Of a stretch of DNA of 64,000 nucleotides, positions 5,341 to 63,691 are shown piece after piece. The stretch comes from Brevundimonas sp. (lineage in GTDB: Bacteria > Pseudomonadota > Alphaproteobacteria > Caulobacterales > Caulobacteraceae), in NCBI RefSeq assembly GCF_965279155.1, contig NZ_OZ257138.1, forward strand, positions 313,210 to 377,209, in the 5' to 3' direction. The notes under the pieces were generated by a model. That model did no database searches and was not told the origin of the DNA. It saw nothing but the letters and a program-made list of their open reading frames with translations. Position numbers and translations under genes: made by a program. The stretch's first letter is position 1; each line of letters opens with the position of its first letter.

Positions 5341-7244
5341 TGCGCCGGGGCGGCGGGCGTCGCGTCGGCCGAAAGTCCCAGGGCCGAACGGGCCTGAACC
5401 GGGTCGTTCTTGGCCTTGGAGCGCTGGGCGCCGGCGGCGAAGGACGTCTCGACCATGGCCTGGACCAGTTCCTGCGTCAGGCGCGGACGAACCTGTTCGG
5501 CCAGCGGCCCTGCCACGGCGGGACTGGCGGCAAGAACGTTGTCCACGCGACCAACGACATAGGCGGTCTGCGACGCCGGTTGCGAGAAGGCCTGGCCCTT
5601 GGACTGGCCGAACAGACCTTGCAGCACGCCCTGACCCAGAGCGTCCTGCGTCGCCTGGTTGCGGACGACGCCGGTGCGGACCGTCAGGGGCGCATTGACC
5701 GAGCGGGCGACGGCGGCGATGTCCTCGCCGTTGCGGACGCGGGTGGTCAGTTCTTCCGCCTTGGTCGAAAGACGACGCATCGTCTCGCGCTGGATCCATT
5801 GGGCCGTCAGGGGCTCGCGCACCTCGGCCAAGGTCGGCAGGGCCGACGGACGGATGTCGTTCACGCGCACGGCAAAATACTGGCCCTGGCCGGCGTCGAT
5901 CACGTCGCTTTCGCCGCCCTTGGTAAGACCCCAGGCCGTCTCGAAGATTTGCGGCGGGGCGTTCAGCGCCTGCGCGTTCGGCAGCTTGCCGTCGCGGGTG
6001 AAGGGCGGCAGATCGACCACGCGGCCGCCGGCTTCGCGGGCGGCGTCGGCCAGGTTCTTGCCGGCCGTGCGAGCGGCTTCGTATTTCTCGACCTTGGCGT
6101 AGGTCTGGGTCTTCACGTCTTCGGCGCGCAGTTCCTGGATCAGTTCTTCACGTGCGCTCTCCAGCGTCGCAGGCGCAGCGGGCTGGATGGCGGTGACCTT
6201 GGCCACCGCGAAGCCGACGCCGGCCTGGACCGGGTCGGAAACCTGGTTGGCTTGCAGGCCGAAGACGGCGCCGGCCGTCGCGGCGTCGCCGATGGCCGAG
6301 CGCGGCGTGGCGTCGAAGGTCGCGGGCGTGACGTTGTTGGCGCGGCCGGCGTCGGCCGGCGACTGGCCGGCGCGCAGGGCGGCGGCGATTTTCTGGGCCG
6401 TTTCGCGGTTCGGCGCCGTCAGAGTGACGAAGGTGCGGGTCTCGGGCTTGCCCAGAGTGTCCTTCTTGAACTCGAAACGCTCGCGGATGCGGTCATCCGT
6501 GATCGGCGTCGCGGCCGAGGCTTCAGGCGTGAACAGGACGACGGAGACCATGCGGAACTCCGGCGCACGCAGACGTTCGGCGTTTTCCTGGATGAAGGCG
6601 TTCAGCTGGGCGTCGGTGGGAGCAGGGACCTGGCCCGCCATAGCAGACGTGACCTCGAACCAACGACCGTCGCGGCTTTCGAAGGCCGAGCCGGCCAGCA
6701 GGGCGCCATAGATGCGCGGCACGCGGGCGCCGGCGAAGACGGCGGCGCCGAAATGTTCGGTGACGTATTGGTCGCGCAGGTCCTGTTCCAGCATGGCCGG
6801 TGTCAGGTTCTGTTGGGCCAGGGCGGCCTCATAGGCCTGCTGGTCGAACTGGCCGGTGACCGAGTTGAAGAAGGCCGGGATCTGGCGGATCTGCTTGACG
6901 ATCAGTTCCTTGCCGGGGCGGATGCCCGCCTTCCAAGCCCAGTTCAGGAAGCCCAGCTGCTGGGTCTGCTCGGTCAGGAACCGGGTATGGATGTTCTCCG
7001 CGACCAATTCCTCGTTGGTTAGAGGACGGCCGACCTGCTGTTGCAGGCGTTCACGCACCTGATCGAAGGCCGTGCGGAACTCCAGCTCGTTCATCGAACG
7101 GTCGCCCGCATCGATGACGTGCTTGGGACCCAGGTTCGAGAACACGTCCATCCGCGCGCCGACGATCACGAAGCTGATCGCGATCAGGACAAGTAGGGCG
7201 GCCGCCCATTTGGATCGAGAGAAGGCGCGGAAGGCGGTGAGCAT
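5337..7244 (-). CDS. ppiD: SurA-N/PpiD-type periplasmic folding chaperone
   Basis: N-terminal membrane anchor, SurA-like domain, rotamase-like region; typical tpiA-ppiD-trpE context. Confidence 0.8.
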   Translation of the reverse strand: MLTAFRAFSRSKWAAALLVLIAISFVIVGARMDVFSNLGPKHVIDAGDRSMNELEFRTAFDQVRERLQQQVGRPLTNEELVAENIHTRFLTEQTQQLGFLNWAWKAGIRPGKELIVKQIRQIPAFFNSVTGQFDQQAYEAALAQQNLTPAMLEQDLRDQYVTEHFGAAVFAGARVPRIYGALLAGSAFESRDGRWFEVTSAMAGQVPAPTDAQLNAFIQENAERLRAPEFRMVSVVLFTPEASAATPITDDRIRERFEFKKDTLGKPETRTFVTLTAPNRETAQKIAAALRAGQSPADAGRANNVTPATFDATPRSAIGDAATAGAVFGLQANQVSDPVQAGVGFAVAKVTAIQPAAPATLESAREELIQELRAEDVKTQTYAKVEKYEAARTAGKNLADAAREAGGRVVDLPPFTRDGKLPNAQALNAPPQIFETAWGLTKGGESDVIDAGQGQYFAVRVNDIRPSALPTLAEVREPLTAQWIQRETMRRLSTKAEELTTRVRNGEDIAAVARSVNAPLTVRTGVVRNQATQDALGQGVLQGLFGQSKGQAFSQPASQTAYVVGRVDNVLAASPAVAGPLAEQVRPRLTQELVQAMVETSFAAGAQRSKAKNDPVQARSALGLSADATPAAPAQ

Positions 7245-7395
7245 TCGAAAACCCGAGACTGGCCGAGATTGGGGCCGATGTTGGCGTCAGTGGTCGCGTA
7301 TAGTCGGGCCGGGCACGCTGCTGCAAGGACGGCTTCGTGTCGGATTGCGGCGCGGCCCCTTGGCTTCGCGGTTTTCGCCTTCTAGACAGGCGGCC

Positions 7396-8148
7396 ATGAA
7401 ACAATCCGTGAAGTTGATCGTCGGCAATTGGAAGATGAACGGCCTATCGGCCGCCCTGGCGCAGGCTGAATCGATAAGGGATGCCGTCAGCACAGCGGGG
7501 CAGGGCCCTAGGGTCGTCCTGTGCCCGCCCGCCACCCTGATCGACCGGATGCGTGCGGCGCTGGCGGGCAGCGGCGTCGCCGTGGGCGGTCAGGACTGCC
7601 ATGAGAAGCCGGTCGGCGCCTTCACTGGATCGGTGTCGGCGGAAATGCTTGCCGATGCGGGGGCGACCATCGTGATTCTGGGACATTCGGAGCGCCGCGC
7701 CGCCTTTGGCGAAACCGATGCGGATGTCGCAGCCAAGGTCGAGGCGGCGATCGCTGCGGGGCTGGAGCCCATCGTCTGCGTCGGTGAAACGCTGGAGCAA
7801 CGCGAGGCAGGCGACGCCATCGCCGTGGTTTCCGCCCATGTCGAGGGTTCATTGCCGATGGGCCTGTCCGAGCGCGACTTCGCCGTGGCCTATGAGCCGG
7901 TATGGGCCATCGGAACCGGCCTGACACCGACGCTGAAACAGATCGCCGAGGTCCATGCCGCCATCCGTGCGGCCATGATCAAGCGGTTGGGCGAGAGCGC
8001 GCGGACCGCGCCAATCCTGTACGGCGGTTCGGTGAAGCCCGAGAACGCCCGGGACATTCTGGCCACGTCGGAAGTCGGCGGCGCCCTAGTGGGCGGGGCG
8101 TCGCTGAAGGCCGAAGATTTCATGCCCATCGTCAAAGCGGCCGCCTGA
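7396..8148 (+). CDS. tpiA: Triosephosphate isomerase
   Basis: GNWKMNG, GAFTG, GHSERR, AYEPVWAIGTG, LYGGSV, LVGGASL. Confidence 0.97.
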   Translation: MKQSVKLIVGNWKMNGLSAALAQAESIRDAVSTAGQGPRVVLCPPATLIDRMRAALAGSGVAVGGQDCHEKPVGAFTGSVSAEMLADAGATIVILGHSERRAAFGETDADVAAKVEAAIAAGLEPIVCVGETLEQREAGDAIAVVSAHVEGSLPMGLSERDFAVAYEPVWAIGTGLTPTLKQIAEVHAAIRAAMIKRLGESARTAPILYGGSVKPENARDILATSEVGGALVGGASLKAEDFMPIVKAAA

Positions 8149-8212
8149 CGTTTGCTCCGGGCCGGCTTCGATGATAGAGGCCGCCGCTTGATCGGCGCAG
8201 ATCCGCGCCCAC

Positions 8213-8638
8213 ATGAATGACGCCATGCTCCAGACCATTCTGCTCGTCGCCATCATCATCATCGCCGTGTCCCTGACGGGCGTGGTGCTGCTTCAACGTT
8301 CCGAGGGCGGCGCCCTGGGCATGGGCGGCGGACCGTCGGGCTTCATGACGGCGCGCGGCGCAGGCAACCTTCTGACCAAGGTGACCTGGATCTTGGCCTT
8401 CCTGCTGTTCGGCCTGACCATCGTCCTGACCGTCGTCGGCAACATGGACCGCGCTTCGGTCTCGGTGATCGACGCCGACGCCGTCGGCTCGCTGGCCACC
8501 ACGCCGCAGACGCAGCAGCAGGCGCCCGCCCAGCAACAGCCCGCCGCTCCGGCCCAGCCTACGGCTCCGTCGCTGGACGATCTGGAAGCCAGCCTGCCGT
8601 CGGCGACGACGGCGCCGGCCCAGCAGCCCGCCCAGTAA
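8213..8638 (+). CDS. secG: Preprotein translocase subunit SecG
   Basis: VLLQRSEGGALGMGG, RGAGNLLTKVT; between tpiA and pyrG. Confidence 0.93.
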   Translation: MNDAMLQTILLVAIIIIAVSLTGVVLLQRSEGGALGMGGGPSGFMTARGAGNLLTKVTWILAFLLFGLTIVLTVVGNMDRASVSVIDADAVGSLATTPQTQQQAPAQQQPAAPAQPTAPSLDDLEASLPSATTAPAQQPAQ

Positions 8639-8664
8639 CGGTCAGACCAACGATCCGACTTCCC

Positions 8665-8697
8665 GAAAGCGCGCCGCAGGGCGCGCTTTCTTCTTTT
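8665..8697 (+). terminator. Intrinsic terminator after secG
   Basis: gaaagcgcgcc-gca-gggcgcgctttc stem followed by ttctttt. Confidence 0.75.
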
Positions 8698-8699
8698 GA

Positions 8700-10415
<1,716 letters not shown>

Positions 10416-48199: not shown

Positions 48200-48769
48200 C
48201 TATTTGCCCATCTGATCCGAAGTCCGGGCCAAAGCGCGATACAAAGTGCTGCGAGAAATCCCGAAAGTGGTCGCTACGGCTCCCATCGTCTGATCGGGAT
48301 GCTGAAGTAAGAGACGGACCTGCTCAAGCTGGCGCGCCGATAGAGCCCGCTTACGCCCGCCAGTTCGTCCTCTCGCGCGAGCGGCTGCCAAGCCTGCCAT
48401 GGTCCGCTCGCGGATTAGGTCTCGCTCCATTTCGGCTAGAGCCGCCATCATATGGAAGAAGAACCGTCCTGCCGGTGTCGTAGTGTCGATGCCATCAGTC
48501 AGGCTTCGAAATTCAACGCCGCGGCTCTTTAGGGCACTGACGAAATCAACAAGCTGACCGACTGTGCGGCCTAGGCGGTCAAGCTTCCAAACAACGAAGA
48601 CATCTTTCTCTCGGGCAAAGCTTAAAGCCTCGCCCAATGCCTTGCGATCTACCCGCGCGCCGGACGCAGCTTCAGAGAAAATCCGCTCGCAGCCCGCCTG
48701 TTTGAGCGCGTCAATCTGGAGATCGAGGTTTTGGTCCGCAGTCGAAACCCGCGCGTATCCGATAAACAT
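48200..48769 (-). CDS. Small serine recombinase (resolvase/invertase)
   Basis: MFIGYARVSTADQ catalytic Ser, VWKLDRLGR, SLTDGIDTTTPAGR, ERTMAGL, C-terminal HTH GISRSTLYR. Confidence 0.95.
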   Translation of the reverse strand: MFIGYARVSTADQNLDLQIDALKQAGCERIFSEAASGARVDRKALGEALSFAREKDVFVVWKLDRLGRTVGQLVDFVSALKSRGVEFRSLTDGIDTTTPAGRFFFHMMAALAEMERDLIRERTMAGLAAARARGRTGGRKRALSARQLEQVRLLLQHPDQTMGAVATTFGISRSTLYRALARTSDQMGK

Positions 48770-49049: not shown

Positions 49050-49250
49050 CACGTCGGTAATCAGCTTTGGCTGCAGGTCGGAGCTTTCGGTAACGGTCCG
49101 ATAGATGCCGGCGAGCAGCGCACGCCCGGTCGATGGACCGGATGCCGGCGAGTACTATCCCGCCGACAGCTTCGCGCGCGTCGTGGCCATGGCAGAACCG
49201 CCTAAAGTTGCTATAAGCGAAATCCTGTTCCGACCGACGTCTCGTGAAAA
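49050..49250 (+). pseudogene. Degraded 3' fragment of an SDR oxidoreductase
   Basis: PADSFARVVA...ISEILFRPT resembles the YdfG-like SDR C-terminus; no intact N-terminal NAD-binding motif. Confidence 0.6.
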
Positions 49251-49282
49251 CTGGCGCCCGTCGACAGACCAAGGGCGACGTT

Positions 49283-50404
49283 ATGGCGAAGACAGCGTGG
49301 GACTGGGGCAATGTCCCCGATGACCCAGATGTTCGCGCCGCATCGCGCATGCTCGGTTGCGCCGGAGAGGGAGCGCCCGCGAAGAAGCGCCATCATTATG
49401 TAGCGACAACCTATCTCGATGGCTTCACCACGCCCGAAGGCAAGCTCTGGACCTACTTCCTCGACAATCCCCTCAATCCCCGACCCAGCCGACCCGAGGC
49501 GGTTGGCTATTCCAACTACTACTATTCGCAGCTTCGACCTGACGGCACGCGCGACGATAACTCGTTCGAAGACCTGTGGAGCGCGATCGAGACCGTCTGG
49601 CCCGAGACGATGGCGGCGATCCGGGGCGGTCGTGTCTCGCCGGCGACCTCGTTCAATGTACTCGGCATGGTTGGGATCACGGGCGTTCGTGTGCCCGCCG
49701 CACGACACCGGCATGAGCTTCTGCTTGCAGCGAAGCTGCGCGCCGAGGCGAAGGCGCTCGAGCGCGCGGGCGTGCTGCCTAAAAAACTGCAACGCTACGC
49801 GGGCCAGCTCGACACCGTTCCCGTCGGCATCAACCCGCAACAGTCGATCCCGACGATGATGACCGATCTGCGCCGGTTCGGCGATCTGTGCTTCCAGATT
49901 GGCTTCGAAGTGGTCCACAACGACACCGATCTGCCCTTCATCACGTCGGACAATCCGCTCGCAATCTACGATCCGCGATCGCCCCCCGGCCAGCGCCGCC
50001 CATATGAGTACGACGGCCAAGTCGAGCTGATATGTCCGCTCGATGCGAGCACGCTATTGCGGGGCCACAGCCGGATTCGGCCGGTGAATGAAATCTCACG
50101 CCACGTGCGCATCTCGGACCGGAGCGCGATTGCGAGATTGAATAATACTCTTGCCCAGTTCGCGTACGGGCTCGTCTTGGCGAGCGACCGCTCAAGCGAT
50201 GGCGTGATCGCGCTGCAGGCGAACCGGTGCCCTACCTTGTCGATAAAGGTCGTCGAGACGCCGAAAGGCGGCGACATCATCTGGCGACACGTTTTCGGCC
50301 CCCGTCCGAAACTTCCCGCCTTCATCGACACCCCTGAAAAGGCCGAACGGCTTGAGGCCGAAATGGCGGCCGCCGCCGCCCGGGCAGTGGAGGGCGCACG
50401 GTGA
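49283..50404 (+). CDS. DUF4238-like protein
   Basis: N-terminal KRHHYVATTYL, later FITSDNP; both typical of DUF4238. Confidence 0.75.
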   Translation: MAKTAWDWGNVPDDPDVRAASRMLGCAGEGAPAKKRHHYVATTYLDGFTTPEGKLWTYFLDNPLNPRPSRPEAVGYSNYYYSQLRPDGTRDDNSFEDLWSAIETVWPETMAAIRGGRVSPATSFNVLGMVGITGVRVPAARHRHELLLAAKLRAEAKALERAGVLPKKLQRYAGQLDTVPVGINPQQSIPTMMTDLRRFGDLCFQIGFEVVHNDTDLPFITSDNPLAIYDPRSPPGQRRPYEYDGQVELICPLDASTLLRGHSRIRPVNEISRHVRISDRSAIARLNNTLAQFAYGLVLASDRSSDGVIALQANRCPTLSIKVVETPKGGDIIWRHVFGPRPKLPAFIDTPEKAERLEAEMAAAAARAVEGAR

Positions 50405-51333
50405 CCGGCGAGCGGATTTTCAATGTCTTTCTGTATTTCGACGACGGTTTCGCGCGCGAGTACGGGGTCCGGCATCATCGCGTGCGAGGCGACGACGCCA
50501 CCAAGATGGCGGCGCTCGCTCAAGCAGTCGCGACGGATCACGGCATCGCGCAGCGCTTCGCCCTGCCGCGGACCTTTACGCCGGGAGAATGGGCCGCGCA
50601 GCAACGCCTCGGGGTTAATCTAGGCCTGTTCGAGGGAGGCATCGACCACTATCGCGCGGGTCCTGAACCCCTGTATTGCCTGACGAGCATCGTCGACGGC
50701 GTTCCCCGTGCGGAGATCAGGGGCGGTCTGGGGCCGCACCAAGGTGACAGCGTCGGTGAGGGCATGCCTGGGACGATGCCGGACTGGCTGGTGGTCTATA
50801 CCGAAGGCGACGCTTTTCGATTCGACAAGCTGATCAACGACGACTACTTCGCGGCTATCAAGCTGCTGTTCAACGCGCGTCATATCGCCTCGACGTCGAA
50901 GCTACTGATGTCCTGCATCGATACGCTCGCCTTTGTCGAGTTCGGCGACAAGCGCGGCAATTTCGTCGAATGGCTGAATACCTATGCCGATCTCGAACCG
51001 GTCGGGGTCACCGCCGACGAACTCTGGGAGTTTCGCAACTCGATCGTCCATATGACCAATCTGTCGTCGCGCGCGGTGCTTGCGGGCAAGGCGTCGTCGC
51101 TGGCACCCTATATCGGCTCCGACGCGCTCATCGGGACCGAGCCAGTCACTGATCTCAAGCCGTTCAACCTTTACACGCTCAATCTGGCGGTGATCGGCGG
51201 CGTCAGCCGCTGGGCGCAGAGCTACAATCGCGACCGGAGTAAGTTCGAAAAATTCGTCGAACGCTACGACACGATCGTTTCCGACAGCCGGGTTGCAATC
51301 GTTCAGACGCCGCCGCCCACTGCGGCGTCTTAG
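50401..51333 (+). CDS. Hypothetical protein with a C-terminal HEPN-like domain
   Basis: GTGA overlap with upstream stop; helical region ...LLMSCIDTLA... then ELWEFRNSIVH (R-x4-H, 51034-51051). Confidence 0.65.
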   Translation: MTGERIFNVFLYFDDGFAREYGVRHHRVRGDDATKMAALAQAVATDHGIAQRFALPRTFTPGEWAAQQRLGVNLGLFEGGIDHYRAGPEPLYCLTSIVDGVPRAEIRGGLGPHQGDSVGEGMPGTMPDWLVVYTEGDAFRFDKLINDDYFAAIKLLFNARHIASTSKLLMSCIDTLAFVEFGDKRGNFVEWLNTYADLEPVGVTADELWEFRNSIVHMTNLSSRAVLAGKASSLAPYIGSDALIGTEPVTDLKPFNLYTLNLAVIGGVSRWAQSYNRDRSKFEKFVERYDTIVSDSRVAIVQTPPPTAAS

Positions 51334-51679
51334 ACAAGCCCGACGCTGTAGGCATCCATCAGATCCCAAAGCCAGTCGACATTCAGGTTGGACTGCCGCA
51401 GGCCGATCGTAGGCTTGCCGCGTCTACTTGCATCGAGGAGCCCCCGGCGACGGAGTCAGACCTCGGCAGACTGCCAGAACGCAAAGTGCGCGGCCCGTCT
51501 CTGACTCGTTGCTGACCATCGGAAAATCAGCTTCAAGGGTCGAATACGCGAGCGGTGACACCCTAAAGCGAGCGCCCGAACGATCGCAATAGATCTTGAG
51601 GCTGCCGTCAAAGTGCTGACCTTCCGACGTTCGAGGTTTAGCGTTGAGGGCGGTAGCGTCGCGACTTGAGGGGGAGACA

Positions 51680-54600
51680 ATGACGATCAGGTTCTCCGAG
51701 AACGGCCCGGAAATCCCGAGCGCCTTGCTCGACGCGCTCATCGCCGGCGACGTGGTCTTCGTCTGTGGCGCCGGCATCAGCGCACCGCAGCTGCCGCATT
51801 TCCGTCTGCTCGTCGAGCAGGTCTATGCTGGCCTGAACGCCGAGATGGAGCCTTCCGAAGAAGCATCCTTCCAAGCCGGCCGGTACGAGGAAGCCCTCGG
51901 TTCATTGTCGCGGAGAATGGTCGGGAGCCGCGACGTCGTGGACACGGCTTCAGCGCTCCTGGCCGTGCCCGATCCTGTGGACCTGACCCGCCACGCGACA
52001 GTGCTGAGGTTGTCCCGTGACATCGCCAATCAGGTGATTGTGGTCACGACCAACTTCGACACTCTAATAGAACGGGCACTGGCCGACCATACCGGTGGAG
52101 ATGTTCGGGAGGAGAGCGCCGCCGGTCAGGGCCTGCCGCCCCCGGGCGGCGCGGACTTCCATGGCGTCATCCACCTCCACGGTCGGCTTCGGGACGAGGC
52201 GTTGGGGCTGGAGCCGACCCCGCTCGTTCTGACCAGTGCGGACTACGGCGACGCCTATATGCGTAGCGGCTGGGCGTCGCGGTTCCTGTTTGATCTGATC
52301 CGCTGCAAGACCATCGTCCTTTTGGGGTACAGCGCCTCCGACGCCCCTATCCGCTATTTCCTATCCGTACTGGCGGCGGATCGAGCACGCTTCCCTGCGC
52401 TCAACCCGGTCTACGCCTTCTATGCCGTGTTTGAGGACGTCGCCGAGGCGGATGCCCACTGGGGCACGTTGGCCGTTGAGCCCATCCCCTACCGTGCCTT
52501 CCGCGATCCGGAGACGGGGGCCGAGGATCACGCAGCCCTCTACGACGATCTGGCCCGGCTTGCAGATGTCGTCGAACGGCCGAAAGCGTCTCGGCGAGAA
52601 AGGGCGCGGGCGCTCTTGCAACGTGATCCAGGTAGCCTAACCCCGCTCGAAACAAACGAAGTGGACTGGCTCTTTAACGGTCGATCTGATCTTTGGGATC
52701 TCGTTATCCGAGAGGTGACCCAGGCTGGCTGGTTCGAGCTTTTCCGAAAGCGAAAGCTCTGGGATGACAAGACGGCGAGCTGGGTGGTCGCAGCCTGGGC
52801 GGCCCTGGAACCCCAATCTCGGGGCCGATATGAGACCGCCATCCGATGGAAGGGTCTGCTCGGCGAGCCTTTCACCGACGAAGTCGCGTGGCGCATTCGA
52901 CAGACGGCGGACCTTCCTGACCTTTGGCGCAAAGCCTGGCGGCTGCTCTGTGTCGATCAGCTTCAGGAGGACAATGTTTGGGACCTGAAAAGCCCCTACG
53001 AAATCCTGGAGGCGATGAAGCAGGGTGTCGTCCTGGATCGCGATCTGGAGCACGCCGTCGGTTGGCTGAGGCCTCGTCTCGACATCGAGCCACACACAGG
53101 CGCGATTTACGGTTCGCCGCCGCCCGAGCCGGCAGAACGACTTCATGACATCGCCTGGCCACGGCTCAAGCTGAGCGATCGGGGCGCGTTGCCGGACTTG
53201 CTCAACGCGATTCCGCAATGGGATTCCGAAGCGCGTTTGCTAGACCTCATGGCGTCGGCGCTCGCCAGTACGGTGCTGACCGCTGGTGACGCGGAGATGA
53301 TCCGCGACGAGTATGACGCCGTCGATGGCGGCCTGCCGTCCATCGAACCTCACAAGCAGAACGACCATCGCGACGGCGTCGTCCATCTGGCCCAGACCTC
53401 CGCCACGCTCCTTCCGAAGCTGGCGGCCACGGACAGGGATGCCGCGAGAGCGATCGTCGCACGTTGGCGGGCGTTGCCGGGGCGCCTGGGTCTCCGGCTG
53501 TGGCTGCAGGCCTGTCGAACACCCGCATTGTTCACGCCGTCCGAAGTCCTCATTGACCTTGAGAGGCTGTCAGAGATCGACTTCTGGACGCTGCGACGCG
53601 AGCTTGCTCTGGTTTTTAGGGAGGGGCTAGCCGGTGCACCGGAGGATGAGGTTCTGCGGCTCGAGGCCCGGATTCTGGATACAGCCGACGCCTATTTCCG
53701 CCGGTACGAACTCGACGAAGGCCAGATGGATTGGCGTCCTCACGCCCGAGACGCAGAGGTCTGGCTGCGTCTGATGATGTTGTCGGAGGCCGGTCTCCTC
53801 TCCCAACCCGGGAAGGACGAGCTTACGGCGATCAAGGTTCGCCGCGACTACCTGGATCGTGCCGTCGAGGATCGGGATTTCTTCGGGTCCTATATGTCCG
53901 AGGTGACCGTCGTCACCGGTGATCCGTCCCCGATCGTCGAGGCGGCGGACGAGGATCGCCTGGAGGTGGCCTTGCAGGTTCGGGCAAGCCGGGACCTCCA
54001 CACACAGCACGGCTGGAGTGCCTACGCGCGCCAGGATCCGGAAGGCGCCTTCAAGACGCTCATGGACGGCCCCCGAAACGAACCGAATGCACCGCTGTGG
54101 CAGGAGTTCATCGGCACGCTGTCGTGGCCTAGCGATCAGGAAGACACCACCAAGTCTCGTCTGACCGTATCGGTGTTCGAGGTTCTGGACGGCGCGGAAG
54201 ACGACTTTATCGATCTCGTCTCGGACAGGCTCGTCGATCTGCTCTGGGGTGCGGCGGATGCAGCCGATATCGACAGCGGTGCTTGGTGGAGCCGCCTCTG
54301 GGCCTCAGTGGTTCGGTCTGACGACGGCGCTGCGCCCAAGGTCGACGATCTCTATTCGCAGGCCATCAATCATCCGGCCGGTCGTCTGACGCAGATCGCA
54401 CTGAAGTCGATCGAACGACAGCGGCGAGACACTCCGGATGTGCGTGAGCCGTGGCTGGGAAGACTGCGCCAAGCCGGCGCGGAAGGCGGCCTAAGCGGGA
54501 TCATGGCTTGGGCGGTTATGGCTCATGACCTCGTTTTCGTCCTGTCGGTGGCGGAGGAAGACGCCGTTCGCGTCATGGCGCCGGCCATGAGCGCCGATGA

Positions 54601-55297
54601 CGATATCGGAGCTGGTCTGCGCAAGGTGGCGGTGGAGGAGGGGCGAGTCTCGCCTCTTCTGACCCGACGGTTCGGCCCGATCTTGATCAAGGCGGCGACG
54701 GAAAACACATCGTCCGGCTGGTCCCAAGTGCATGCCGCAGGCAAGCTCCTGATCCCCCTCGCTAGCGTGGCCAGCGGAGACAAGGCGGCGGATGCCTGGG
54801 GCGTGACGACGGCTGAGGTCGCTCACGCGTTGAGGGTCGGCACACCTTCGCTGCGCGATGGCGCCGCCGAATGGTTCCGCCGAGCACTCGAGGAGGAGGC
54901 TGATCCGGCGGCCACGTGGCGGGGCTGGATGGGGACGCTGTTCCGAACCGTCTGGCCGAGGGAAGCAAAGTACCGCGATGCGGCCCTGAACCGTCACCTC
55001 GCCGACTTCGCGATCGCTGCCAGTGATGCATTCCCCGAGGCGCTTGAGCTGCTGCGACCCTACTTCATGCCGCGAGGCGCAGGTCGAGGGCACACCAACT
55101 CCTTGAGCAAATCCGACCTGCCGGATCGCTTCCCAAACGCCTGTTTGGACCTTGTCTGGATACTTTTTGGTCTCGGCGAAGTGGTCGATAATTATGAGCT
55201 CCCCAAGCTACTCGACCGTCTGATCACTGCGGCCCCGCGCTTGGAGGCTGATCGACGCCTTCAATGGCTTGAACATCGCGTCTTCCGGTTCGACTAA
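51680..55297 (+). CDS. Large SIR2 (sirtuin/NADase) protein, DSR1-like
   Basis: [36 protein letters not shown]; about 900-aa helical C-terminal region. Confidence 0.85.
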
Positions 55298-55320
55298 CTC
55301 CGAGATGTCCGATTGGATCT

Positions 55321-55690
55321 TCGAAGCGGTGAAGCCGGCGCATTCGATCGCAACCCGCATGGCCTGTTCCTGGAGGAGGGGCACGCCGAGGGTCTTGCCC
55401 AGCACCTTCTCCAGCTCGGGATTGGGATAGACGACGTCCTCCTTGCCCTCTCTGCGACGCAGATAGGGATGGACCATGTCGCCCTGGATCGGGCCGGGGC
55501 GGACGATGGCGACCTCGATGACCAGATTGTAGAAGGTGCGCGGCTTGATGCGCGGGAGCATGGCCATCTGGGCCTGGCTCTCGATCTGGAAGACACCGAG
55601 CATGTCGGCCTTCCGGATCATCGCATAGGTCTTGGGGGCCTCGGCCGGAATGGTGGCGAGGTCGAGCGCGATCCCCTTGTGCTCGGCCAG
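55321..55690 (-). pseudogene. dnaE2: Internal fragment of error-prone polymerase DnaE2/ImuC
   Basis: [52 protein letters not shown]; both ends missing. Confidence 0.85.
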
Positions 55691-55699
55691 CCGTCTCAG

Positions 55700-55895
55700 C
55701 GCGGCGATGCGCTTCTACACCATGACCCCGTACGTTGTGACCATATTCACCGGTCTGGCCGTCGCCATCGGCGCCACCCTGTTCCGGTGGCCCATTTGGC
55801 CGACATCTCGAACTCGGGCACGCTGTTCGCCATTTTCATGATGTCGATCGCGGTAATGGCGCTGCGCAAGGCCGACCCGAGCCGGCATGCCGACG
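55700..55895 (+). pseudogene. Frameshifted fragment of an APC amino-acid permease
   Basis: TPYVVTIFTG then frame change to LADISNSGTLFAIFMMSIAVMALRKADP. Confidence 0.7.
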
Positions 55896-55999
55896 CCCGA
55901 GGCCTGACACGCAGAGCGCAACTTGTTTTCCCTCGTGCAATGGTTGCGCGTTAACGAGGACTGCGCTCAAGGTCGGCCGTCAACTTTGCGAGGCCCGGA

Positions 56000-58459
56000 A
56001 TGGATACGGCTCTTATCGTGATGGGCGTCGCTGTCCCCGGCGGGGCGCCTGTCTTCTGCTACGCCCAACTCAGATCGGTGATCGCCGCAGGCGATTACGG
56101 ACCCCTCACCCTGCCCAGATCCGCAGCCCCGGCGAACCATCGCCGCGTCGCGGTGATGAAGGCGTTCGAACTTGTCTCATGGCGACGGCGCCTGAGCGAC
56201 GATGAGTTGGCCGCTTTCCGTTCCGGGCTGTCGGCGGGAACGGTGTCCTTGCCCGATGACTGTCCGATCGAGCCCGGCAAGACAATTAACGGCGAGACCT
56301 TCCCGGATACCTATATTCTCGAGACAAGCGACTACGTACCTGTGGCTGGTGCCGGGGTGCTGACTAGCCGCGGGCTGTGTTCGGCCGACGCCGTGCCCGA
56401 TATCGTAAACCTTCTCATCGCTGCGTTTGGCCGCGCTGAGGTCGGCGACGGGGTGCAGGCGCTGCTCACCGCGATCGACGATGAAATCGGGTCGCCGAAC
56501 CTCGTGGCGGAAACCCGTCGCCTGGGCGTCGTGGAAGACCTTCGACGGTCATCGTCGGCGACAGCCGCCGATCTTCTGCGTGTCGCGGTGGCCAAGGTCG
56601 ATGCCCGATCCGACGATGCCTGCCTTCAGCTCCGCATCATTCGAGAGCCGGTGGTCACCGCGCGCCGCGACCTCCGTGTCGTGGTTCGGATGAAGACCTC
56701 GACGTTCGAGGTCGTCCGCCGACTGATCCTGATCCCTGCGGACACGGATGAGCAGATCGTGGACTCGCCGAGTCACATCGTGGAGGCGGAGCTTCAGGTT
56801 TTCGATGCGCGGGATGGGGAGTTCCTTCAGTTGGTGGATACATGGTTTACCCAAGGGTTCCTGCTCTCCATGACCATGATGGGCGCCACAGACCTGCTCC
56901 CGACGCCGTTCAGCTCAGCGCCTCACAGCCCAGACCTGATCGCCCGGCCCCGATTTGAGGGCGGCGGTCCGAAGACTAGGCTGGGGTTCGGAAATCGCTC
57001 AGGCGGCTTCGATGTCCTGAAGGCGACCGCGGATATTGTCGATCAACTCGCCGGAAAGCGGGACGAGAAACTAGAATCCCGGTTCTTCGAGGCCGGGCAT
57101 CAATCCCAAGTCGAGGTGATCCGCTGGATCAAGTCCCAGCTCGAAAACACAGACGTGGAAGAAGCTTTTCTCCTCGATCCTTACCTCGGTCGCCCCGCTA
57201 TGGAGCGGGTCATCCTCCGCAACGGGAGTGAGAGTCTGAAGCTGACCCTGATGGTGTCCCCCGGGGCCGTCGATCCAGACGCCGAGAAAATGGACGCCAT
57301 CGTGGGGTCGGGACTTCACGTTCAGGGTCTGGTCGCCGCCGCCGAGGCGCTGAAGTCTCAGCTGTGCGGAGAGGTTGAAATCATCCATGTCGAGCGGGGG
57401 AGCGATCAGCGCCAGGCCTTCCACGACCGCTATCTGGGCCTCAAGCTGCAGGATGGAACGCCTCGTGTCTTCGTGCTGTCGAACAGTCTCAGCAAGGCGG
57501 CTGGAGCGTGGCCATTCGCCATCGCCGAGGTTGATCGCCGCGCCGCATGGCGGATCGCCGCCTATGTCAGCGCCCTGCGCCGCGGCCTCGAAAACGGTCA
57601 CCCTGTCACCTCCACCGTCATCTGGCGTTCTGGCCCACGCGAGAGCCAGTATGAGGTCCCCGAGGCGACGGCCTTCCAGTCGGCGCTGTGGGAGCTTCAC
57701 GGCGCGTTGTGCGAAGTCTGCACCGGTTCAGACGATGTCGATCCCGAACCCTACACGCCTCTTGTCGACCAGCTGCTCGCCTGCTTGCCTGAAGATCAGG
57801 ATGTCTCGGATCTCGGGACGGCGGTCTTCAAGGGGATGTACGGGCGTGATCGTTCGGCGAGCTTGCTGGCCGGCTGGATCGAAGACCGGCATGGCCATGA
57901 AGCGCTGGGACGGGCCGTCGCGGCAGCACAACTTGACGAGATTCTCCAGCAAGTGGCCCCCAAGGACGGACGTATCGGTCGGGTCCACCTTCAGATCGAC
58001 TCCCTGGTCCTCGCCGGCCTTCAACTGTCGCGCACCCCCAAGGGGACAGATGTCATACGGGATCGCCTGAACCCCGCCGCGGAACACTGCATGCTCTGGC
58101 TCGAGCTGGGAGGGGCGGGCGACCGTTCCCTTCGCGCCCTCTCCGCCGTATTCGCGATCGTCCTCATCGGGCTGGAGACCGCGCGCCAGGGTGTCGATCT
58201 CGTGCCCGCCCACCGGACGGGCCTTGCGACCGACTATGTCGCCCTGCTGGCCCGCGTGCTGCGGACCGACACTGCCCGAGAATGGCTCGCGCTGCGTGAC
58301 GACCTGGCCCCGGACACGGCGATCGTGAGACGATGCTTGGCCGCCGCCGAAGAACTGGCGTCCGATCTGCACGGCCCGGTCGCCGCGACCTGGAGACGGC
58401 TGTCGGCGGACCCCCTCTGTGTCAGGCCGCTTCCGATCGCTGACGAGCGGTCGCTGTGA
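56000..58459 (+). CDS. Large hypothetical protein with a PLD-fold (HDR-type) domain, VPA1262-like
   Basis: AFLLDPYL, then AFHDRYL...VFVLSNSLS (57419-57493). Confidence 0.65.
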   Translation: MDTALIVMGVAVPGGAPVFCYAQLRSVIAAGDYGPLTLPRSAAPANHRRVAVMKAFELVSWRRRLSDDELAAFRSGLSAGTVSLPDDCPIEPGKTINGETFPDTYILETSDYVPVAGAGVLTSRGLCSADAVPDIVNLLIAAFGRAEVGDGVQALLTAIDDEIGSPNLVAETRRLGVVEDLRRSSSATAADLLRVAVAKVDARSDDACLQLRIIREPVVTARRDLRVVVRMKTSTFEVVRRLILIPADTDEQIVDSPSHIVEAELQVFDARDGEFLQLVDTWFTQGFLLSMTMMGATDLLPTPFSSAPHSPDLIARPRFEGGGPKTRLGFGNRSGGFDVLKATADIVDQLAGKRDEKLESRFFEAGHQSQVEVIRWIKSQLENTDVEEAFLLDPYLGRPAMERVILRNGSESLKLTLMVSPGAVDPDAEKMDAIVGSGLHVQGLVAAAEALKSQLCGEVEIIHVERGSDQRQAFHDRYLGLKLQDGTPRVFVLSNSLSKAAGAWPFAIAEVDRRAAWRIAAYVSALRRGLENGHPVTSTVIWRSGPRESQYEVPEATAFQSALWELHGALCEVCTGSDDVDPEPYTPLVDQLLACLPEDQDVSDLGTAVFKGMYGRDRSASLLAGWIEDRHGHEALGRAVAAAQLDEILQQVAPKDGRIGRVHLQIDSLVLAGLQLSRTPKGTDVIRDRLNPAAEHCMLWLELGGAGDRSLRALSAVFAIVLIGLETARQGVDLVPAHRTGLATDYVALLARVLRTDTAREWLALRDDLAPDTAIVRRCLAAAEELASDLHGPVAATWRRLSADPLCVRPLPIADERSL

Positions 58460-58718
58460 ATCTGGCAGATCCGGTCGCGGAAGCCGCACGCCTGCTGTTG
58501 CAGAGCATGTCCACGAGCCGGGGAAAGCTCGGCCGGCGACAGTCGTTCCTGTTTGGCCGCCCGGGGTCTTCGCCCCACGACCGGCGAATGGCGAGGCGAT
58601 TTCAAAGATACGGCTTTGGGAACGGGCCGGACGGGACCAGCATCCAGCAACGCCGCCGGCCGACGGATGCCCTAGAATGATCGCGCGACCTGGGATCTGA
58701 TTCGGAGCTCTCGACGTC

Positions 58719-61700
58719 ATGTTCAACATCACCGGCGAGGATATCGCGCAACTGGGGGACGCCGACCTGCGGACCCTCGTCGCCCGGCTCGCCCAGGCAG
58801 AGGTGGCGCGGCGCGGCGGTCCCGTGTCAGCGGTCACCGCGGGCGGTCCGCAGGACGCCGGGGACGGCGGCATCGATGTGCGCGTTGAACTGCCGACGCC
58901 GACTGCACAACCCGATTTCGTCCCGCGGGCACAGACAGGGTTCCAGGTCAAGAAACCACCCATGACCCCATCTGCGATCGGTGGCGAAATGCGCCCGACC
59001 GGCACGCTGCGCGCTGCGATCGCCGAGCTTGCGGAGAAACGCGGAGCGTATCTGATCGTGAGCGGAGCGACGGGGGTCACCGACGTCGCGCTCGCAAGAC
59101 GCCGGACGGCGATGCGAGAGGCGGTCGCCGACCACCCAAAGGCGGGGGATCTGCATCTCGACTTCTATGATCGGGACCGGCTCGCGGCGTGGGCCGACCT
59201 CTATCCGGGCGTGGCCGCGTGGGTGCGCGGGCGGGTCGGGCGCCCGCTCGCGGGCTGGCGACCGATCGGGCGCTGGCGGGACCTCTCGACGGCCACCGAC
59301 ACCGGCTACCTGATCGACGAGGGGCTGACGCTGATCGACGAACGCGACGGGGCCAAGGTGCTGCCAATCGAGCAGGGCCTCGCGCTCCTGCGCGATCTGC
59401 TTCGGCGACCCGGCGCCTGCGTCAGACTGATCGGCTTGTCCGGGGTGGGCAAGACCCGTCTCGTGGAAGCTCTGTTCGAGGACGGGGTCGGCTCAGCGCC
59501 CCTTGATCCGGGTTCGGCCATCTATGCGGACTACGCCGACGCCACGACGCCGTCTGCCCAGGAGATGGCCCAACGCCTCGACGAGGCCCAAACCTCAGCC
59601 ATTCTGATTATCGACAACTGCAACCCGGCGACGCACAGCCGACTCGCCCAGGTGTGCGGGCGGCCGGGCAGTCGGATCAGCCTCCTGACGGTCGAGTACG
59701 ACATCCGGGATGACGAACCGGAAGCAACCCAAGTCGTACGGCTGGTCGCGTCTTCGGAACCCTTGGTCGAAACGTGGCTGGGGCGGGACTTCCCGCATGT
59801 GTCCCAACTGGATCGCGGCCGGATCGCCACCTTCAGCGGCGGCAATTTCCGCGTGGCGCGGGCGCTGGCGGGCGCGTTGCGAGTCGGGGAAAGCCTCGGT
59901 CGATTGCGAGACCGGGACCTGTTCGAACGGATCTTCCGGCAGCGGAACGACCCGGACCAGACCTTGCTGCGCGATGCCGAGACGCTCGCCCTGTTCTATT
60001 CGTTCGAGGGCGTGGACGATGCGGACGGCGAACTCGCGCGTATCGGTCGGCTCCAGGGACGCATGGTCGCCGATCTGTTCGGCACCTTGGCGGAGCTGAA
60101 AACCCGAGGCGTGCTTCAAACGCGCGGGAAGTGGCGCGCCATCCTGCCGCACGCCATCGCGAACCCGCTGGCGGCCGGGGCGCTGGGCCGGCTACCCCCC
60201 GCCGCATTCGACGCCTTCGCCGCAGCCCTGCCGGAGCGGATGTTCCGCTCGCTCACGCGGCGGCTGGGCCAGCTCCACGATGTGGACGTTGCTCGCGATC
60301 TGGTTCAGCGCTGGTTGGACCCCACAGGGCCGGCGGGCGACCTTCTCGCCGGGGGGCGGTTCGATCTGCTGATCAACCTCGCACCTGTCGCTCCGCGCGA
60401 CACGCTCGACAGGCTAACGGCTGCGGTTCAGGCGGGGGACGGACCGAGAGCCGGAGGATTGCACAGGGGCAGCTGGAACAGCCTGATCAAGGCGATCGCC
60501 TATGACGTCGATCTGTTCGCGCCGGCGGCTCGCCTTCTGGCGAGCCTGGTCGCCCGGGAGGCGCACGATGAGAACTACGACAGCGCCCGGGGCGCGTTCG
60601 AGGAACTGTTCCATCTCTACCTGTCCGGCTCCCAGGCCTCGCCCGCGGATCGCCGGGCCATCACGGTCGAGCTCCTGAGGAGCGACGACCCCGGCCTGCG
60701 GCGGGCGGGCGGCCTGGCCCTCGACGGCCTGCTGCAGGAGGGGCACTTCAGTTCCAGCCATAGCCTGGACTTCGGAGCCCGCCCTCGGGATTTCGGCTGG
60801 CACCCGACGACGACGCAGGACGTCAGCGACTGGTACGAAGCCGCGCTCGGCGTCGCACGAACCGAAACGCGCCGGGACGAACAGCGCGTGCGTTTTGCCG
60901 GAGCGCTGCGCGGTCTCTGGCGATACCCGGCCTGCCGCACGGCGTTCGAGGCGGCCGCGGCGGATTTTGAAGGCGACGGCGGCTGGCTTGAAGGGTGGTC
61001 TGCGCTGCGGATGGTATTGCGCTACGACGCCGAGGGGATGCCGACCGAGGTTCGACAACAGACAGACGCACTGATCGACAGGCTCAAGCCAGACGGACTG
61101 CTGGCGCGGGCGAGAGCATGGGTCGTGTCGCCACGGCCGGGTCTTTGGGAGGACGACGACGACGAAGAGCCCTCGGACTCCGGCACCTCATGGGAGCGCG
61201 CCAACGACCGTGCCGCCGAAATCGGCGCGGCCATGGCGTCCGACGAGGCCCTGCTCGCGGCCTTTATCCCCGAGGTGATGAGAGAGGGGGCGGCCGCGAT
61301 CCGCGATGCGCCCTTCGCCCGCGGTGTCGCAGGGGCCGTCTCGGATCTGCAGGCGACCTGGACAGTCATGACGACCGCCTATCGCGTCGGAGAGCCAGCT
61401 CGCCACTCGCCTGTGATCCTGGCCCATTTCCTCGCGGCCGCCCGGGCGCGGGATGACGCCTTCGTCGAGGCCTCGCTTGAGGCCGCCGCCGCCGACCCGG
61501 ATCTCGCGGGAGTCCTTGCCTACCTCCAGTTCACAGCCGGTTTGGATGCGCGCGGCATCGACCGACTGCTGCGCGCGATGGACGCGTCCGACGCGGTCGA
61601 ATCCTACCAGGTCCTTGGACGCGTTCACCCCGAGGACGTTGCGCCGGCCGATCTGGCGCGTTTGCTGGCGCGGCTCGCGCAGAAGCCTGGCGGCGTCACG

Positions 61701-62459
61701 ATCGGCCTGGACGCGCTATCGACCTATTTCTACCCGTCCGGTGGCAAGGCGGTCGAACCCCACCCCGCGCTCGTCGTCCTGGGGCGCGACCTCTTCTCCC
61801 GCATGGGACCCGAAGGTCTTTCGGACATGCGGAATTACAGCCTGCGCTATGTCGTACGGCCCTGTCTCTCCGGCGTGGACGGAGAAGCAGCCGCGCGGCG
61901 GACCTGTGAAATCGTCCGCAGCCTCAAAACGGGCCGGTCGGGTTGGAAACGGGGCGGAAACGGACTTGCCCAGGCGCTCTTCGAGGTCCAGCCGGAGATT
62001 GCACTCGACGTCTTCATGGCCGGTCCGGACGGGCCCGTTGAGACGCTCTTTCGGGAGCGCCCCGGCGGCCCTTCACCCCTCAACAAACTGGATGTGTCGC
62101 AGGTGGTCAGCTGGGCCGATAGGGACCCGGCGGCCCGCTACGCAGCCTTGGGGACCGCTTCCGCCATGTTCCTCAAAGACCAGGGCGATCGTACGCTGGG
62201 ATTGAACCCACTGTTCGTAACCTTGCTCGAGCACTCCCCGGATAAGCAGGCCTTCCTGGGGTCGTTCTACGACCGTCTCGCGCCGAGGAGCTGGTCGGGT
62301 TCGCTCGCCGAGATACTAGACCAGCGGCGGCGACTGCTCGACGCCTTGCCGGATCATCCGGATGTTCAGACCTGGCGCGAGGCCGCCGCGCCCCAGATTG
62401 CCCGTTGGATCGCCACCGAGCGGGAGAACGAGGCAGAGCGGGAGGAGTCTTTTGAATGA
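58719..62459 (+). CDS. Restriction-endonuclease-like + STAND-like P-loop ATPase + helical C-terminus (Avs-like architecture)
   Basis: DGGID...GFQVK (PD-(D/E)xK/Mrr-like); Walker A GLSGVGKT (59433-59456); Walker B ILIIDN (from 59601). Confidence 0.75.
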   Translation: MFNITGEDIAQLGDADLRTLVARLAQAEVARRGGPVSAVTAGGPQDAGDGGIDVRVELPTPTAQPDFVPRAQTGFQVKKPPMTPSAIGGEMRPTGTLRAAIAELAEKRGAYLIVSGATGVTDVALARRRTAMREAVADHPKAGDLHLDFYDRDRLAAWADLYPGVAAWVRGRVGRPLAGWRPIGRWRDLSTATDTGYLIDEGLTLIDERDGAKVLPIEQGLALLRDLLRRPGACVRLIGLSGVGKTRLVEALFEDGVGSAPLDPGSAIYADYADATTPSAQEMAQRLDEAQTSAILIIDNCNPATHSRLAQVCGRPGSRISLLTVEYDIRDDEPEATQVVRLVASSEPLVETWLGRDFPHVSQLDRGRIATFSGGNFRVARALAGALRVGESLGRLRDRDLFERIFRQRNDPDQTLLRDAETLALFYSFEGVDDADGELARIGRLQGRMVADLFGTLAELKTRGVLQTRGKWRAILPHAIANPLAAGALGRLPPAAFDAFAAALPERMFRSLTRRLGQLHDVDVARDLVQRWLDPTGPAGDLLAGGRFDLLINLAPVAPRDTLDRLTAAVQAGDGPRAGGLHRGSWNSLIKAIAYDVDLFAPAARLLASLVAREAHDENYDSARGAFEELFHLYLSGSQASPADRRAITVELLRSDDPGLRRAGGLALDGLLQEGHFSSSHSLDFGARPRDFGWHPTTTQDVSDWYEAALGVARTETRRDEQRVRFAGALRGLWRYPACRTAFEAAAADFEGDGGWLEGWSALRMVLRYDAEGMPTEVRQQTDALIDRLKPDGLLARARAWVVSPRPGLWEDDDDEEPSDSGTSWERANDRAAEIGAAMASDEALLAAFIPEVMREGAAAIRDAPFARGVAGAVSDLQATWTVMTTAYRVGEPARHSPVILAHFLAAARARDDAFVEASLEAAAADPDLAGVLAYLQFTAGLDARGIDRLLRAMDASDAVESYQVLGRVHPEDVAPADLARLLARLAQKPGGVTIGLDALSTYFYPSGGKAVEPHPALVVLGRDLFSRMGPEGLSDMRNYSLRYVVRPCLSGVDGEAAARRTCEIVRSLKTGRSGWKRGGNGLAQALFEVQPEIALDVFMAGPDGPVETLFRERPGGPSPLNKLDVSQVVSWADRDPAARYAALGTASAMFLKDQGDRTLGLNPLFVTLLEHSPDKQAFLGSFYDRLAPRSWSGSLAEILDQRRRLLDALPDHPDVQTWREAAAPQIARWIATERENEAEREESFE

Positions 62460-63691
62460 GCGAGGCCGAGCCGATCGATGACGCCGAGCCTGTCTCCCTT
62501 TTAGGCCCCGCGAAACGAGTTCTTCTGGGGGCCGGGTCGCCTTCGCGGCTCAAGCCCAGACGTCGGGCCGGACGACCGGTTTGTCTGCCGGAGCTGAAGC
62601 TGGACGGCATCATTGCGGAAGGCGGGCGCGAAGGTGAGATGGTCAAGGTGTGGAACCGCCTGTCCATGACGTCCGATGCCCCGCATTTTCATCTCATTCT
62701 CGAGAACCTGGACAAGACCCTCGCCGGCGCGTCGCAAAGCGCCGGGATCGAGACCCGAGGTCTCGCAGACGCAAATCTCGCGCTTCTCGTGATCCATGCC
62801 GACCATACCGCCGAGCTTTGGTCCGACAATCTGCCCGTGACCATGGATATCGTCCTGCTCCGCAGCGTAGAGAAGGGCGAAGCCGTCTTCCACCACGACA
62901 TTGGAGATATCCGGGCCGTCAATATTGGGGGGCCGCGTCTGTTGGCCGATGACAAGGTTCTCTGCGTCATGCGCGAAGGCTGGCGCTTCGGATTCTATAT
63001 GAATCTGACTCAGCAGTTCGATCCTGCGGAAATGGCGCGCACGCTCGCCGCCTTGATCCGGCGAATGCGCTACGCACGAATCTACAACGCTGTTCAGCAG
63101 CCGGCTGTGTTCGACCGGCTGGTGGAAGCGGGCTGGTTCCCCTTCGCCGAAATAGTGTCCCGGGAGTTCCCGAGCATCATGGGCGCGGTGGACGCGGGCT
63201 GGACCCTGGACGACGTCAACAAGGAGATCCTGAAGGCGTTCGACGAGCCCCGGCTCGACAGGATGCTGGAGCGTTGGACCCCCAGACCGCACTTTGCAGA
63301 CGCCGCGCCTCTCCTGCGGGCAGCGATCGCGGCCTACAAACGCGAAGACCCGGTTTCGGTCCTGAAGATCGTGCTCACGGAGATCGAGGGCGTTCTGCGG
63401 CGCGCCTACAAGGCGGAGACCGGACAGTCGGCCAGGCTCAAACGTCTGCTCGCCTTCGTCCATGAGACGGCTGTAAAAAAGACCGGCGCGCCTGACACGC
63501 TGCTGCTGCCGGAAAGGTTCACCGACTATCTGCGGGATTATGTATTCGCGGAGTTCGATCCTGACGCCGGCGGCGGGCTGGCCGGATCCCGACATGCCGT
63601 CGGTCACGGTGCGGCCGCGGCGGACAGCTACACCCAGGTGCGCGCCCTTCAGGCGCTGCTGACGCTCGATCAGCTCGCTTTGGCCACCTGA
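62456..63691 (+). CDS. Hypothetical protein with a C-terminal HEPN-like domain (start possibly 62639)
   Basis: ATGA overlap with upstream stop; EIEGVLR helix and SRHAVGHG (R-x4-H, 63590-63607). Confidence 0.65.
   Translation: MSEAEPIDDAEPVSLLGPAKRVLLGAGSPSRLKPRRRAGRPVCLPELKLDGIIAEGGREGEMVKVWNRLSMTSDAPHFHLILENLDKTLAGASQSAGIETRGLADANLALLVIHADHTAELWSDNLPVTMDIVLLRSVEKGEAVFHHDIGDIRAVNIGGPRLLADDKVLCVMREGWRFGFYMNLTQQFDPAEMARTLAALIRRMRYARIYNAVQQPAVFDRLVEAGWFPFAEIVSREFPSIMGAVDAGWTLDDVNKEILKAFDEPRLDRMLERWTPRPHFADAAPLLRAAIAAYKREDPVSVLKIVLTEIEGVLRRAYKAETGQSARLKRLLAFVHETAVKKTGAPDTLLLPERFTDYLRDYVFAEFDPDAGGGLAGSRHAVGHGAAAADSYTQVRALQALLTLDQLALAT

Follow-up and report, generated by a model that had tools for sequence, protein, structure and literature searches.

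The avs8A-like gene and its conserved motifs

We analysed a stretch of 64,000 nucleotides (nt) from Brevundimonas sp. (contig NZ_OZ257138.1, positions 313,210 to 377,209; below, the window), focusing on an open reading frame (ORF) on its forward strand at 58719..62459, which begins with ATG and encodes 1246 amino acids (aa) followed by a stop codon. As judged by homology over its whole length, the product is an intact, divergent member of the Avs8 (PD-λ-4A) family of STAND NTPases, and it is referred to here as the Avs8A-like protein. It consists of a predicted N-terminal nuclease, a central NTPase module and a long C-terminal helical sensor, and its gene is followed on the same strand by a 411-aa gene with a HEPN-like motif.

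More than 2000 database proteins match the ORF at E ≤ 1e-5, with a query coverage of 97–100% in the 120 matches listed, and 363 relatives of the protein were found in species-representative genomes. The ratio of nonsynonymous to synonymous substitution rates (dN/dS), calculated against a relative with 94.8% nucleotide identity from a metagenomic contig (L088/L089), is 0.23 overall; by domain, the NTPase has a value of 0.12 and the sensor one of 0.30, the highest of the three domains. These observations indicate a real gene rather than a chance ORF in high-GC (guanine plus cytosine) DNA. The ATG start is supported by the conservation of the N-terminus, which reads MF(E/D)I(T/S)G in nearly all homologues, and the sequence GGAG lies about 11 nt 5' of it. 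Homology with the metagenomic contig begins at 58592, and the sequences to the left of this position differ; hence the non-coding forward-strand stretch 58592..58718 (127 nt) moves together with the gene, whose promoter and ribosome-binding site are probably located there. A search upstream of the gene for the sigma-70 consensus gave no match, and the promoter is thus a presumed one.

All motifs quoted in the initial annotation of this ORF, which had been made from the sequence alone, are present on the forward strand: DGGID (aa 49–53, nt 58863–58877), QVK (aa 76–78, nt 58944–58952), FYDRDRLAAW (aa 149–158, nt 59163–59192), the Walker A motif GLSGVGKT (aa 239–246, nt 59433–59456), and IIDN (aa 297–300, nt 59607–59618), the last within the Walker B segment ILIIDN (nt 59601–59618). 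Residues D49, G51, D53, Q76, and K78 of the nuclease and G239, S241, G242, G244, K245, T246, D299, N300, and C301 of the NTPase do not vary in either of two alignments, of 22 and 37 sequences, respectively. The same five nuclease residues, together with E90, are invariant in a third alignment of 27 diverse homologues.

Assignment to the Avs8 family

The PADLOC model PD-Lambda-4_A (PDLC03991) matches residues 1–1246 of the protein to profile positions 3–1283 of 1283, with E = 0 and a score of 1063 bits. No other PADLOC family was found at E ≤ 0.1, only PD-Lambda-4_A models being matched. The PADLOC library contains AVAST models, and the comparison with Avs1–5 profiles that the initial annotation had recommended therefore returned no match of these types. 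That annotation had placed the protein outside the named Avs types, which holds for Avs1–5 and fails for the nomenclature as a whole: the full-length PD-λ-4A homology assigns the protein to a named, already described family, since renamed Avs8, rather than to an unnamed Avs type. A position within a described Avs clade had been singled out in advance as the outcome that would reduce the novelty, and this is what we observe. Searches of the whole protein against other collections were far less informative: Pfam gave sub-threshold AAA-type matches (the best being a weak one to AAA_16) and a weak match to DUF7552, NCBIfam gave no match, no chain in the PDB was matched by sequence at E ≤ 1, and a tblastn search of a phage collection gave no match.

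The prototype of the family is E. coli PD-λ-4A/Avs8A of strain ECOR07 (WP_000963924.1). An E. coli copy of it in NZ_CP065152 (locus L006, 6001–9852) scores 2518 bits on PDLC03991, and a PD-Lambda-4_B gene encoding 303 aa (PDLC03992, 653 bits) comes after it. By BLASTP, this copy aligns with the Avs8A-like protein at 31% identity (E 2e-168), collinearly from end to end over about 1285 columns. This copy was located via a plasmid copy from Enterobacter mori; a DNA search with the Enterobacter allele did not find the E. coli prototype. In a BLASTP comparison restricted to the sensors, the two proteins are again collinear, with 24% identity over 731 columns (E 1e-43). Thus, the window protein shares with the family homology over the full length, homology of the sensor itself, and a nuclease domain with an intact active-site motif. 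It falls within a larger clade at 40–60% identity.

The PD-λ-4 system was obtained by functional selection in E. coli and was listed as "ATPase, hypothetical" (Vassallo et al. 2022, PMC9519451); HHpred placed an ATPase at residues 226–392 of its A protein and a zinc-ribbon-like region at the N-terminus of its B protein (PMC9519451 supplement). It has since been renamed Avs8, and Avs8A alone was reported to give full defence against λ, Avs8B being dispensable (10.1101/2025.07.02.662641). In the same study, purified Avs8A bound the λ capsid protein gpE with a dissociation constant (KD) of 127 nM and the capsid protein of phage Bas21 with a KD of 14 nM; degradation of double-stranded DNA (dsDNA) was triggered by capsid protein in the presence of Mg2+ and ATP and was not triggered by assembled virions; mutants of the nuclease active site lost defence; and AlphaFold3 favoured a tetramer (10.1101/2025.07.02.662641). 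An independent screen, which also uses the name Avs8, identified the major capsid protein as the trigger and modelled the sensor on the penton- and hexon-forming surface of the capsid-protein A-domain (10.64898/2026.01.04.697583). The statement in the initial annotation that the ligand is unknown is therefore outdated, as that of the prototype from E. coli is known to be the major capsid protein with the HK97 fold (10.1101/2025.07.02.662641; 10.64898/2026.01.04.697583).

Domain architecture

The order of effector, NTPase and sensor suggested initially was borne out by an Mrr signature as in EcoKMrr, a STAND fold recognized by Foldseek, and an alpha-solenoid tail. The N-terminal Mrr-type PD-(D/E)xK nuclease domain occupies 58719..59198 (aa 1–160), as delimited by the motif, the topology of an AlphaFold2 model, and alignments. 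Its putative catalytic residues are D53 and Q76-x-K78, with D49, E28, and E90 also conserved, and its GDGGIDV...FQVKK corresponds to GDGGIDG...VQAKR of EcoKMrr, the same signature. In the AlphaFold2 model of aa 1–560 (predicted local distance difference test, pLDDT, 84) the domain has an alpha-beta-beta-beta-alpha-beta core, D53 immediately precedes the strand 54–57, and QVK ends the strand 72–78. The domain is 41% identical to that of the E. coli prototype. The profile of N-terminal domains gave no match in the PDB, a Pfam scan of 27 N-terminal domains gave no Mrr_cat signal at E ≤ 10, and hhalign of the N-terminal alignment with the single EcoKMrr sequence yielded a probability of 0.6%. As these searches were negative, the Mrr assignment is based on the motif, on the topology predicted for the domain, and on the literature.

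The segment FYDRDRLAAW, initially considered a linker, instead constitutes the last strand (146–150) and helix (152–159) of the nuclease domain in the AlphaFold2 model. It is highly conserved, D151 and W158 being invariant in all three alignments, and F149 or Y150 as well as R152 in some of them. The actual connector is the variable region that follows, 59199..59363 (aa 161–215), which is 26% identical to its E. coli counterpart and contains a loop with pLDDT below 50 at aa 187–194.

The STAND NTPase module, formed by a nucleotide-binding domain, a helical domain, and a winged helix, was assigned by Foldseek and the Walker motifs to 59364..60278 (aa 216–520) and is 43% identical to that of E. 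coli Avs8A. The top Foldseek matches in the PDB, with E-values from 1e-7 to 1e-5, are MalT (8bob), a STAND-TPR protein (6mfv), Apaf-1, NOD2, the NRC2/3 resistosomes, and the Avs5 filament (9nc9); the latter ranks 16th and is a generic match to the STAND fold only. The protein shows the features that define the STAND superfamily, namely, a P-loop, Walker B residues at aa 295–300, helical and winged-helix domains, and a helical-repeat tail. The Walker B motif has the form hhhhDNC (59601..59621, aa 295–301) in every member of the family, including E. coli Avs8A, and contains no second acidic residue. This bears on a question raised for the prototype (10.1101/2025.07.02.662641), namely, whether ATP has to be hydrolysed.

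The remaining 726 aa, 60279..62456 (aa 521–1246), form an all-helical C-terminal solenoid, the sensor, as seen from AlphaFold2, BLASTP, and alignments. The initial annotation had recognized the helical nature of the tail and had given its length as about 800 aa; the solenoid itself begins only after the helical domain and the winged helix of the NTPase module. A separate AlphaFold2 model of aa 481–1246 (pLDDT 87) consists of essentially nothing but helices and has only generic HEAT/karyopherin matches, with a template modelling (TM) score of about 0.3; since only such solenoid matches were obtained, a solved structure of an Avs8A-like sensor was not found in the PDB. The sensor has invariant patches, among them FGARPRDxGW (nt 60771–60791), WxEGW, SWSGSLA (nt 62289–62309), and a terminal FE. 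A sensor-only search yielded 1741 cluster representatives at E ≤ 1e-3; in most of the full-length ones the sensor starts near residue 525, so that it almost always stands behind the same nuclease-NTPase N-terminus of about 525 aa.

The downstream HEPN-like gene

The ATG of the 411-aa gene at 62456..63691, identified in the ORF listing on the forward strand, overlaps the stop codon of the avs8A-like gene (ATGA). Its product belongs to a widespread family of proteins of about 400 aa, with 602 homologues found, that share an invariant C-terminal SRHAVGHG (R379-x4-H384, an Rx4H motif of HEPN-like type) and LTEIEG. Its sequence is not matched by any model of Pfam, PADLOC or PHROG. One UniRef member of the family is named "Apea-like HEPN"; membership in ApeA was considered and is not supported by Pfam or PADLOC. 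Avs8B was likewise considered as the downstream partner and rejected, the 411-aa protein having no similarity to Avs8B and no PADLOC hit. Indeed, Avs8B (PDLC03992) is absent downstream of the gene in the window, and a search of the 85 loci other than that of E. coli did not reveal it either; given that Avs8B is dispensable for defence, its absence is not disqualifying.

The 411-aa gene adjoins an avs8A gene only in the window and in L088/L089. In the latter, the counterpart of 58719..62459 lies at 6263..10004, and the insertion of a single C behind window position 59512 interrupts the ORF soon after the Walker A motif; this may reflect a pseudogene or an assembly error. In our view, the 411-aa gene is probably a defence gene in its own right, and the probability of its being a lineage-specific partner is small; its family may represent an undescribed single-gene defence family.

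Proposed mechanism and alternative explanations

Homology to E. coli Avs8A led us to propose capsid sensing followed by oligomerization and non-specific DNase activity. We consider it probable, with fairly high confidence, that the window protein is a single-protein anti-phage receptor of the Avs8 (PD-λ-4A) STAND family working in the same way as E. coli Avs8A, and from this analogy we infer its ligand, oligomeric state, DNase activity, and defence phenotype. The C-terminal solenoid would bind the HK97-fold major capsid protein of a tailed phage when it is freshly synthesized and not yet assembled. Binding of the ligand, together with ATP at the Walker A/B site, would release autoinhibition and cause oligomerization, probably to a tetramer. 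The N-terminal Mrr-type domains would thereby be brought together and would degrade phage and host dsDNA without sequence specificity, which would block virion production and abort the infection.

Several observations weigh against this interpretation. Between the sensor and its counterpart in the experimentally tested E. coli protein the identity is only 24%, and the E. coli clade is itself an outlier, with 28–34% identity to the other 56 members compared, except for a close Enterobacter mori relative (55%); conservation of the ligand is for these reasons an extrapolation. The Walker B motif of the whole family has DN in place of DD or DE, and the nuclease fold lacks an independent match in Pfam, in the PDB profile search, or by hhalign with EcoKMrr. 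The nearest relative, in L088/L089, carries the +1 frameshift caused by the inserted C, which indicates that the gene can be lost. Finally, only four sequencing runs contain the full sequence, with flat, DNA-like depth, and a search for RNA runs among the runs with locus sequence found none.

The divergence of the sensor could mean that this clade retains the family membership and the ATP-dependent nuclease output while reading another phage protein, or a surface other than the HK97 A-domain. The contrast between 24% identity in the sensor and 41–43% in the nuclease and NTPase points in this direction, as does the sensor having the highest dN/dS of the three domains; moreover, at least one Avs protein, KpAvs2, is described in the literature as binding structurally unrelated ligands. 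However, the sensor aligns collinearly with that of the prototype along its full length, and the invariant patches are common to both. E. coli Avs8A itself tolerates capsid proteins that are less than 15% identical to each other, which suggests recognition at the level of the fold that would survive such divergence. A different ligand thus seems unlikely, although it is the most serious competitor of capsid sensing. A two-gene variant, with the HEPN-like protein acting as a second effector or modulator in the position of Avs8B, appears considerably less probable. The two genes lie on one strand with a 4-nt overlap, they and the 127 nt upstream are kept as a block in L088/L089 where the left flank differs, and the HEPN-like gene, with a dN/dS of 0.10, is strongly constrained by purifying selection and has the invariant Rx4H motif. 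All support for the pairing nevertheless comes from one close relative and hence from one evolutionary event. A homologue of the HEPN-like protein is present in 0 of 86 loci encoding Avs8A relatives, no adjacent same-strand ORF of at least 120 aa recurs among 56 loci, in L090 and L091 a homologue of the HEPN-like gene has no avs8A in its vicinity, and the second gene of the E. coli system is dispensable.

Decay, or a role outside defence, whether as a regulator or as an inactive relic, would agree with the frameshift in the closest relative, the early stop codons in four retrieved homologues (L037, L041, L055, L060), and the lack of RNA runs, but is very improbable: the ORF is intact at 1246 aa with all conserved catalytic and nucleotide-binding residues present, its dN/dS of 0.23 indicates constraint, and a nuclease effector domain in a defence-island setting is unlike a transcription regulator. 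There is also a rather low probability of a genuine novelty in this lineage, in which Avs8A would either have gained a translationally coupled Rx4H partner from an uncharacterised family, the pair moving as a cassette that would couple the capsid-sensing STAND nuclease to a second, possibly RNA-targeting effector, or have a divergent sensor that reads a non-capsid ligand. We retain the single-protein capsid receptor as the preferred interpretation.

Distribution of the family

Among species-representative genomes, relatives of Avs8 extend well past the Enterobacteria and occur in Alpha-, Beta-, and Gammaproteobacteria, Verrucomicrobia, Chlorobi, Firmicutes, and Chloroflexi. Among the matches listed, the closest homologues of the window protein are Phenylobacterium and Brevundimonas proteins, and named homologues are almost all called hypothetical. 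Elsewhere, relatives are found in a lambdoid prophage, beside AbiEii, or beside an integrase. One avs8A allele, whose protein begins with MFEITGAQVADL and is 87–97% identical between copies, is present in 12 species genomes from 11 genera: Castellaniella, Pseudomonas, Pedomonas, Stenotrophomonas, Delftia, Achromobacter, Bordetella, Sphingobium, Siccibacter, Acidovorax, and Dokdonella (loci L010, L011, L012, L013, L014, L016, L019, L029, L034, L040, L044, and L048; also L001 and L004). The same allele resides in an Enterobacter lambdoid prophage, with the replication P gene on one side and RusA and antiterminator genes downstream. The occurrence of one allele in 11 genera and a prophage points to recent and wide horizontal transfer.

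The Avs8 family is thus large, horizontally mobile, and mostly single-gene. Since no adjacent ORF recurs among the 56 intact loci and the sensor is tied to one N-terminus, the family can be described as essentially single-gene and of fixed architecture. While the Avs8A-like protein in itself is an expected member of a described family, the assignment turns a "hypothetical protein" into a concrete and testable annotation, and a member with 31% identity to the prototype would provide a useful comparison for how a helical sensor keeps recognizing a conserved capsid fold.

Genomic context

The avs8A-like gene sits in a defence island that starts after a housekeeping gene at about 47.6 kb. The GC content is 0.59–0.63 across 47–57 kb, compared with about 0.66 elsewhere; that of the avs8A-like gene is 0.686, compared with 0.615–0.646 in its neighbours, and this excess suggests a mosaic assembly of the island. 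At the left edge of the lower-GC region lies a serine recombinase of the DNA-invertase type on the reverse strand (48200..48769; phrog_125, 253 bits). It is followed on the forward strand by a gene for a DUF4238 protein (49244..50404) and by a gene for a 310-aa protein (50401..51333) that overlaps the former by 4 nt. In an unrelated contig (L090, 7370..8323), a DUF4238 gene adjoins a homologue of the HEPN-like gene.

Further along the forward strand, 51644..55297 encodes a Dsr1-like SIR2 protein of 1217 aa (PADLOC, 261 bits; NCBIfam, 318 bits against a cutoff of 1400). The Dsr1 match is confined to the N-terminal ~330 aa, and the C-terminus of about 900 aa is divergent. As Dsr1 sensors were reported to detect capsid protein (10.64898/2026.01.04.697583), two sensors of capsid protein, separated by about 3.4 kb, may be present in the island. 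The end of this gene is overlapped by a reverse-strand ORF of 137 aa (55208..55621) that matches the finger domain of the DNA polymerase III alpha subunit (Pfam, 130 bits) and looks like a dnaE remnant. In the four runs containing the locus, the assembled contigs are interrupted at this position, and the depth rises about threefold. A 14-kb "joint" from 49390 to 63411, seen in two runs, was dismissed as a chance match, being supported on its shorter side by only 20 letters. Directly upstream of the avs8A-like gene, 56000..58459 on the forward strand encodes a VPA1262-family protein of 819 aa, recognized by the NCBIfam model of the N-terminal domain (143 bits) and without a Pfam or PADLOC hit.

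Comparison with known systems

The closest characterized system is E. coli Avs8A, which has the same three-part architecture with the parts at the same positions (1283 aa, compared with 1246 aa here). Identical in both proteins are GDGGID...QxK, the Walker A motif GLSGxGKT, the Walker B motif DNC, FGARPRDxG, WxEGW, SWSGS, and the terminal FE. The system in the window differs by its low identity to the prototype (31% overall, 24% in the sensor), its location in a high-GC genome, and the HEPN-like gene that replaces Avs8B.

A similar layout is known from other STAND nucleases. Avs4, whose N-terminal nuclease is Mrr-like, and Avs3 sense the terminase or the portal rather than the capsid protein. 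The structures of these AVAST proteins, Avs4 (EcAvs4) and Avs3, were reportedly solved as tetramers by Gao and colleagues in 2022. Both combine a PD-(D/E)xK effector, a STAND NTPase, and a helical-repeat sensor, a layout which the window protein shares, and are activated by direct binding of a conserved phage protein, as proposed here; they differ from it in sequence, as neither was matched in PADLOC (E ≤ 0.1) or in the PDB (E ≤ 1). More generally, Avs1–5 (AVAST types I–V) yielded no family-specific match, and no solved Avs chain was matched by sequence. EcoKMrr (NP_418771.1) has the same catalytic signature, with no similarity detectable by hhalign outside the motif; unlike the window protein, it carries an N-terminal winged-helix DNA reader and has neither an NTPase nor a sensor.

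Other sensors of capsid protein are Avs7, Avs10, and Dsr1, which are reported to target the same surface of the capsid-protein A-domain by means of different sensor architectures (10.64898/2026.01.04.697583). The Avs8 sensor is combined almost only with one nuclease-NTPase N-terminus, whereas Avs7 is reported with at least 20 effectors (10.64898/2026.01.04.697583).

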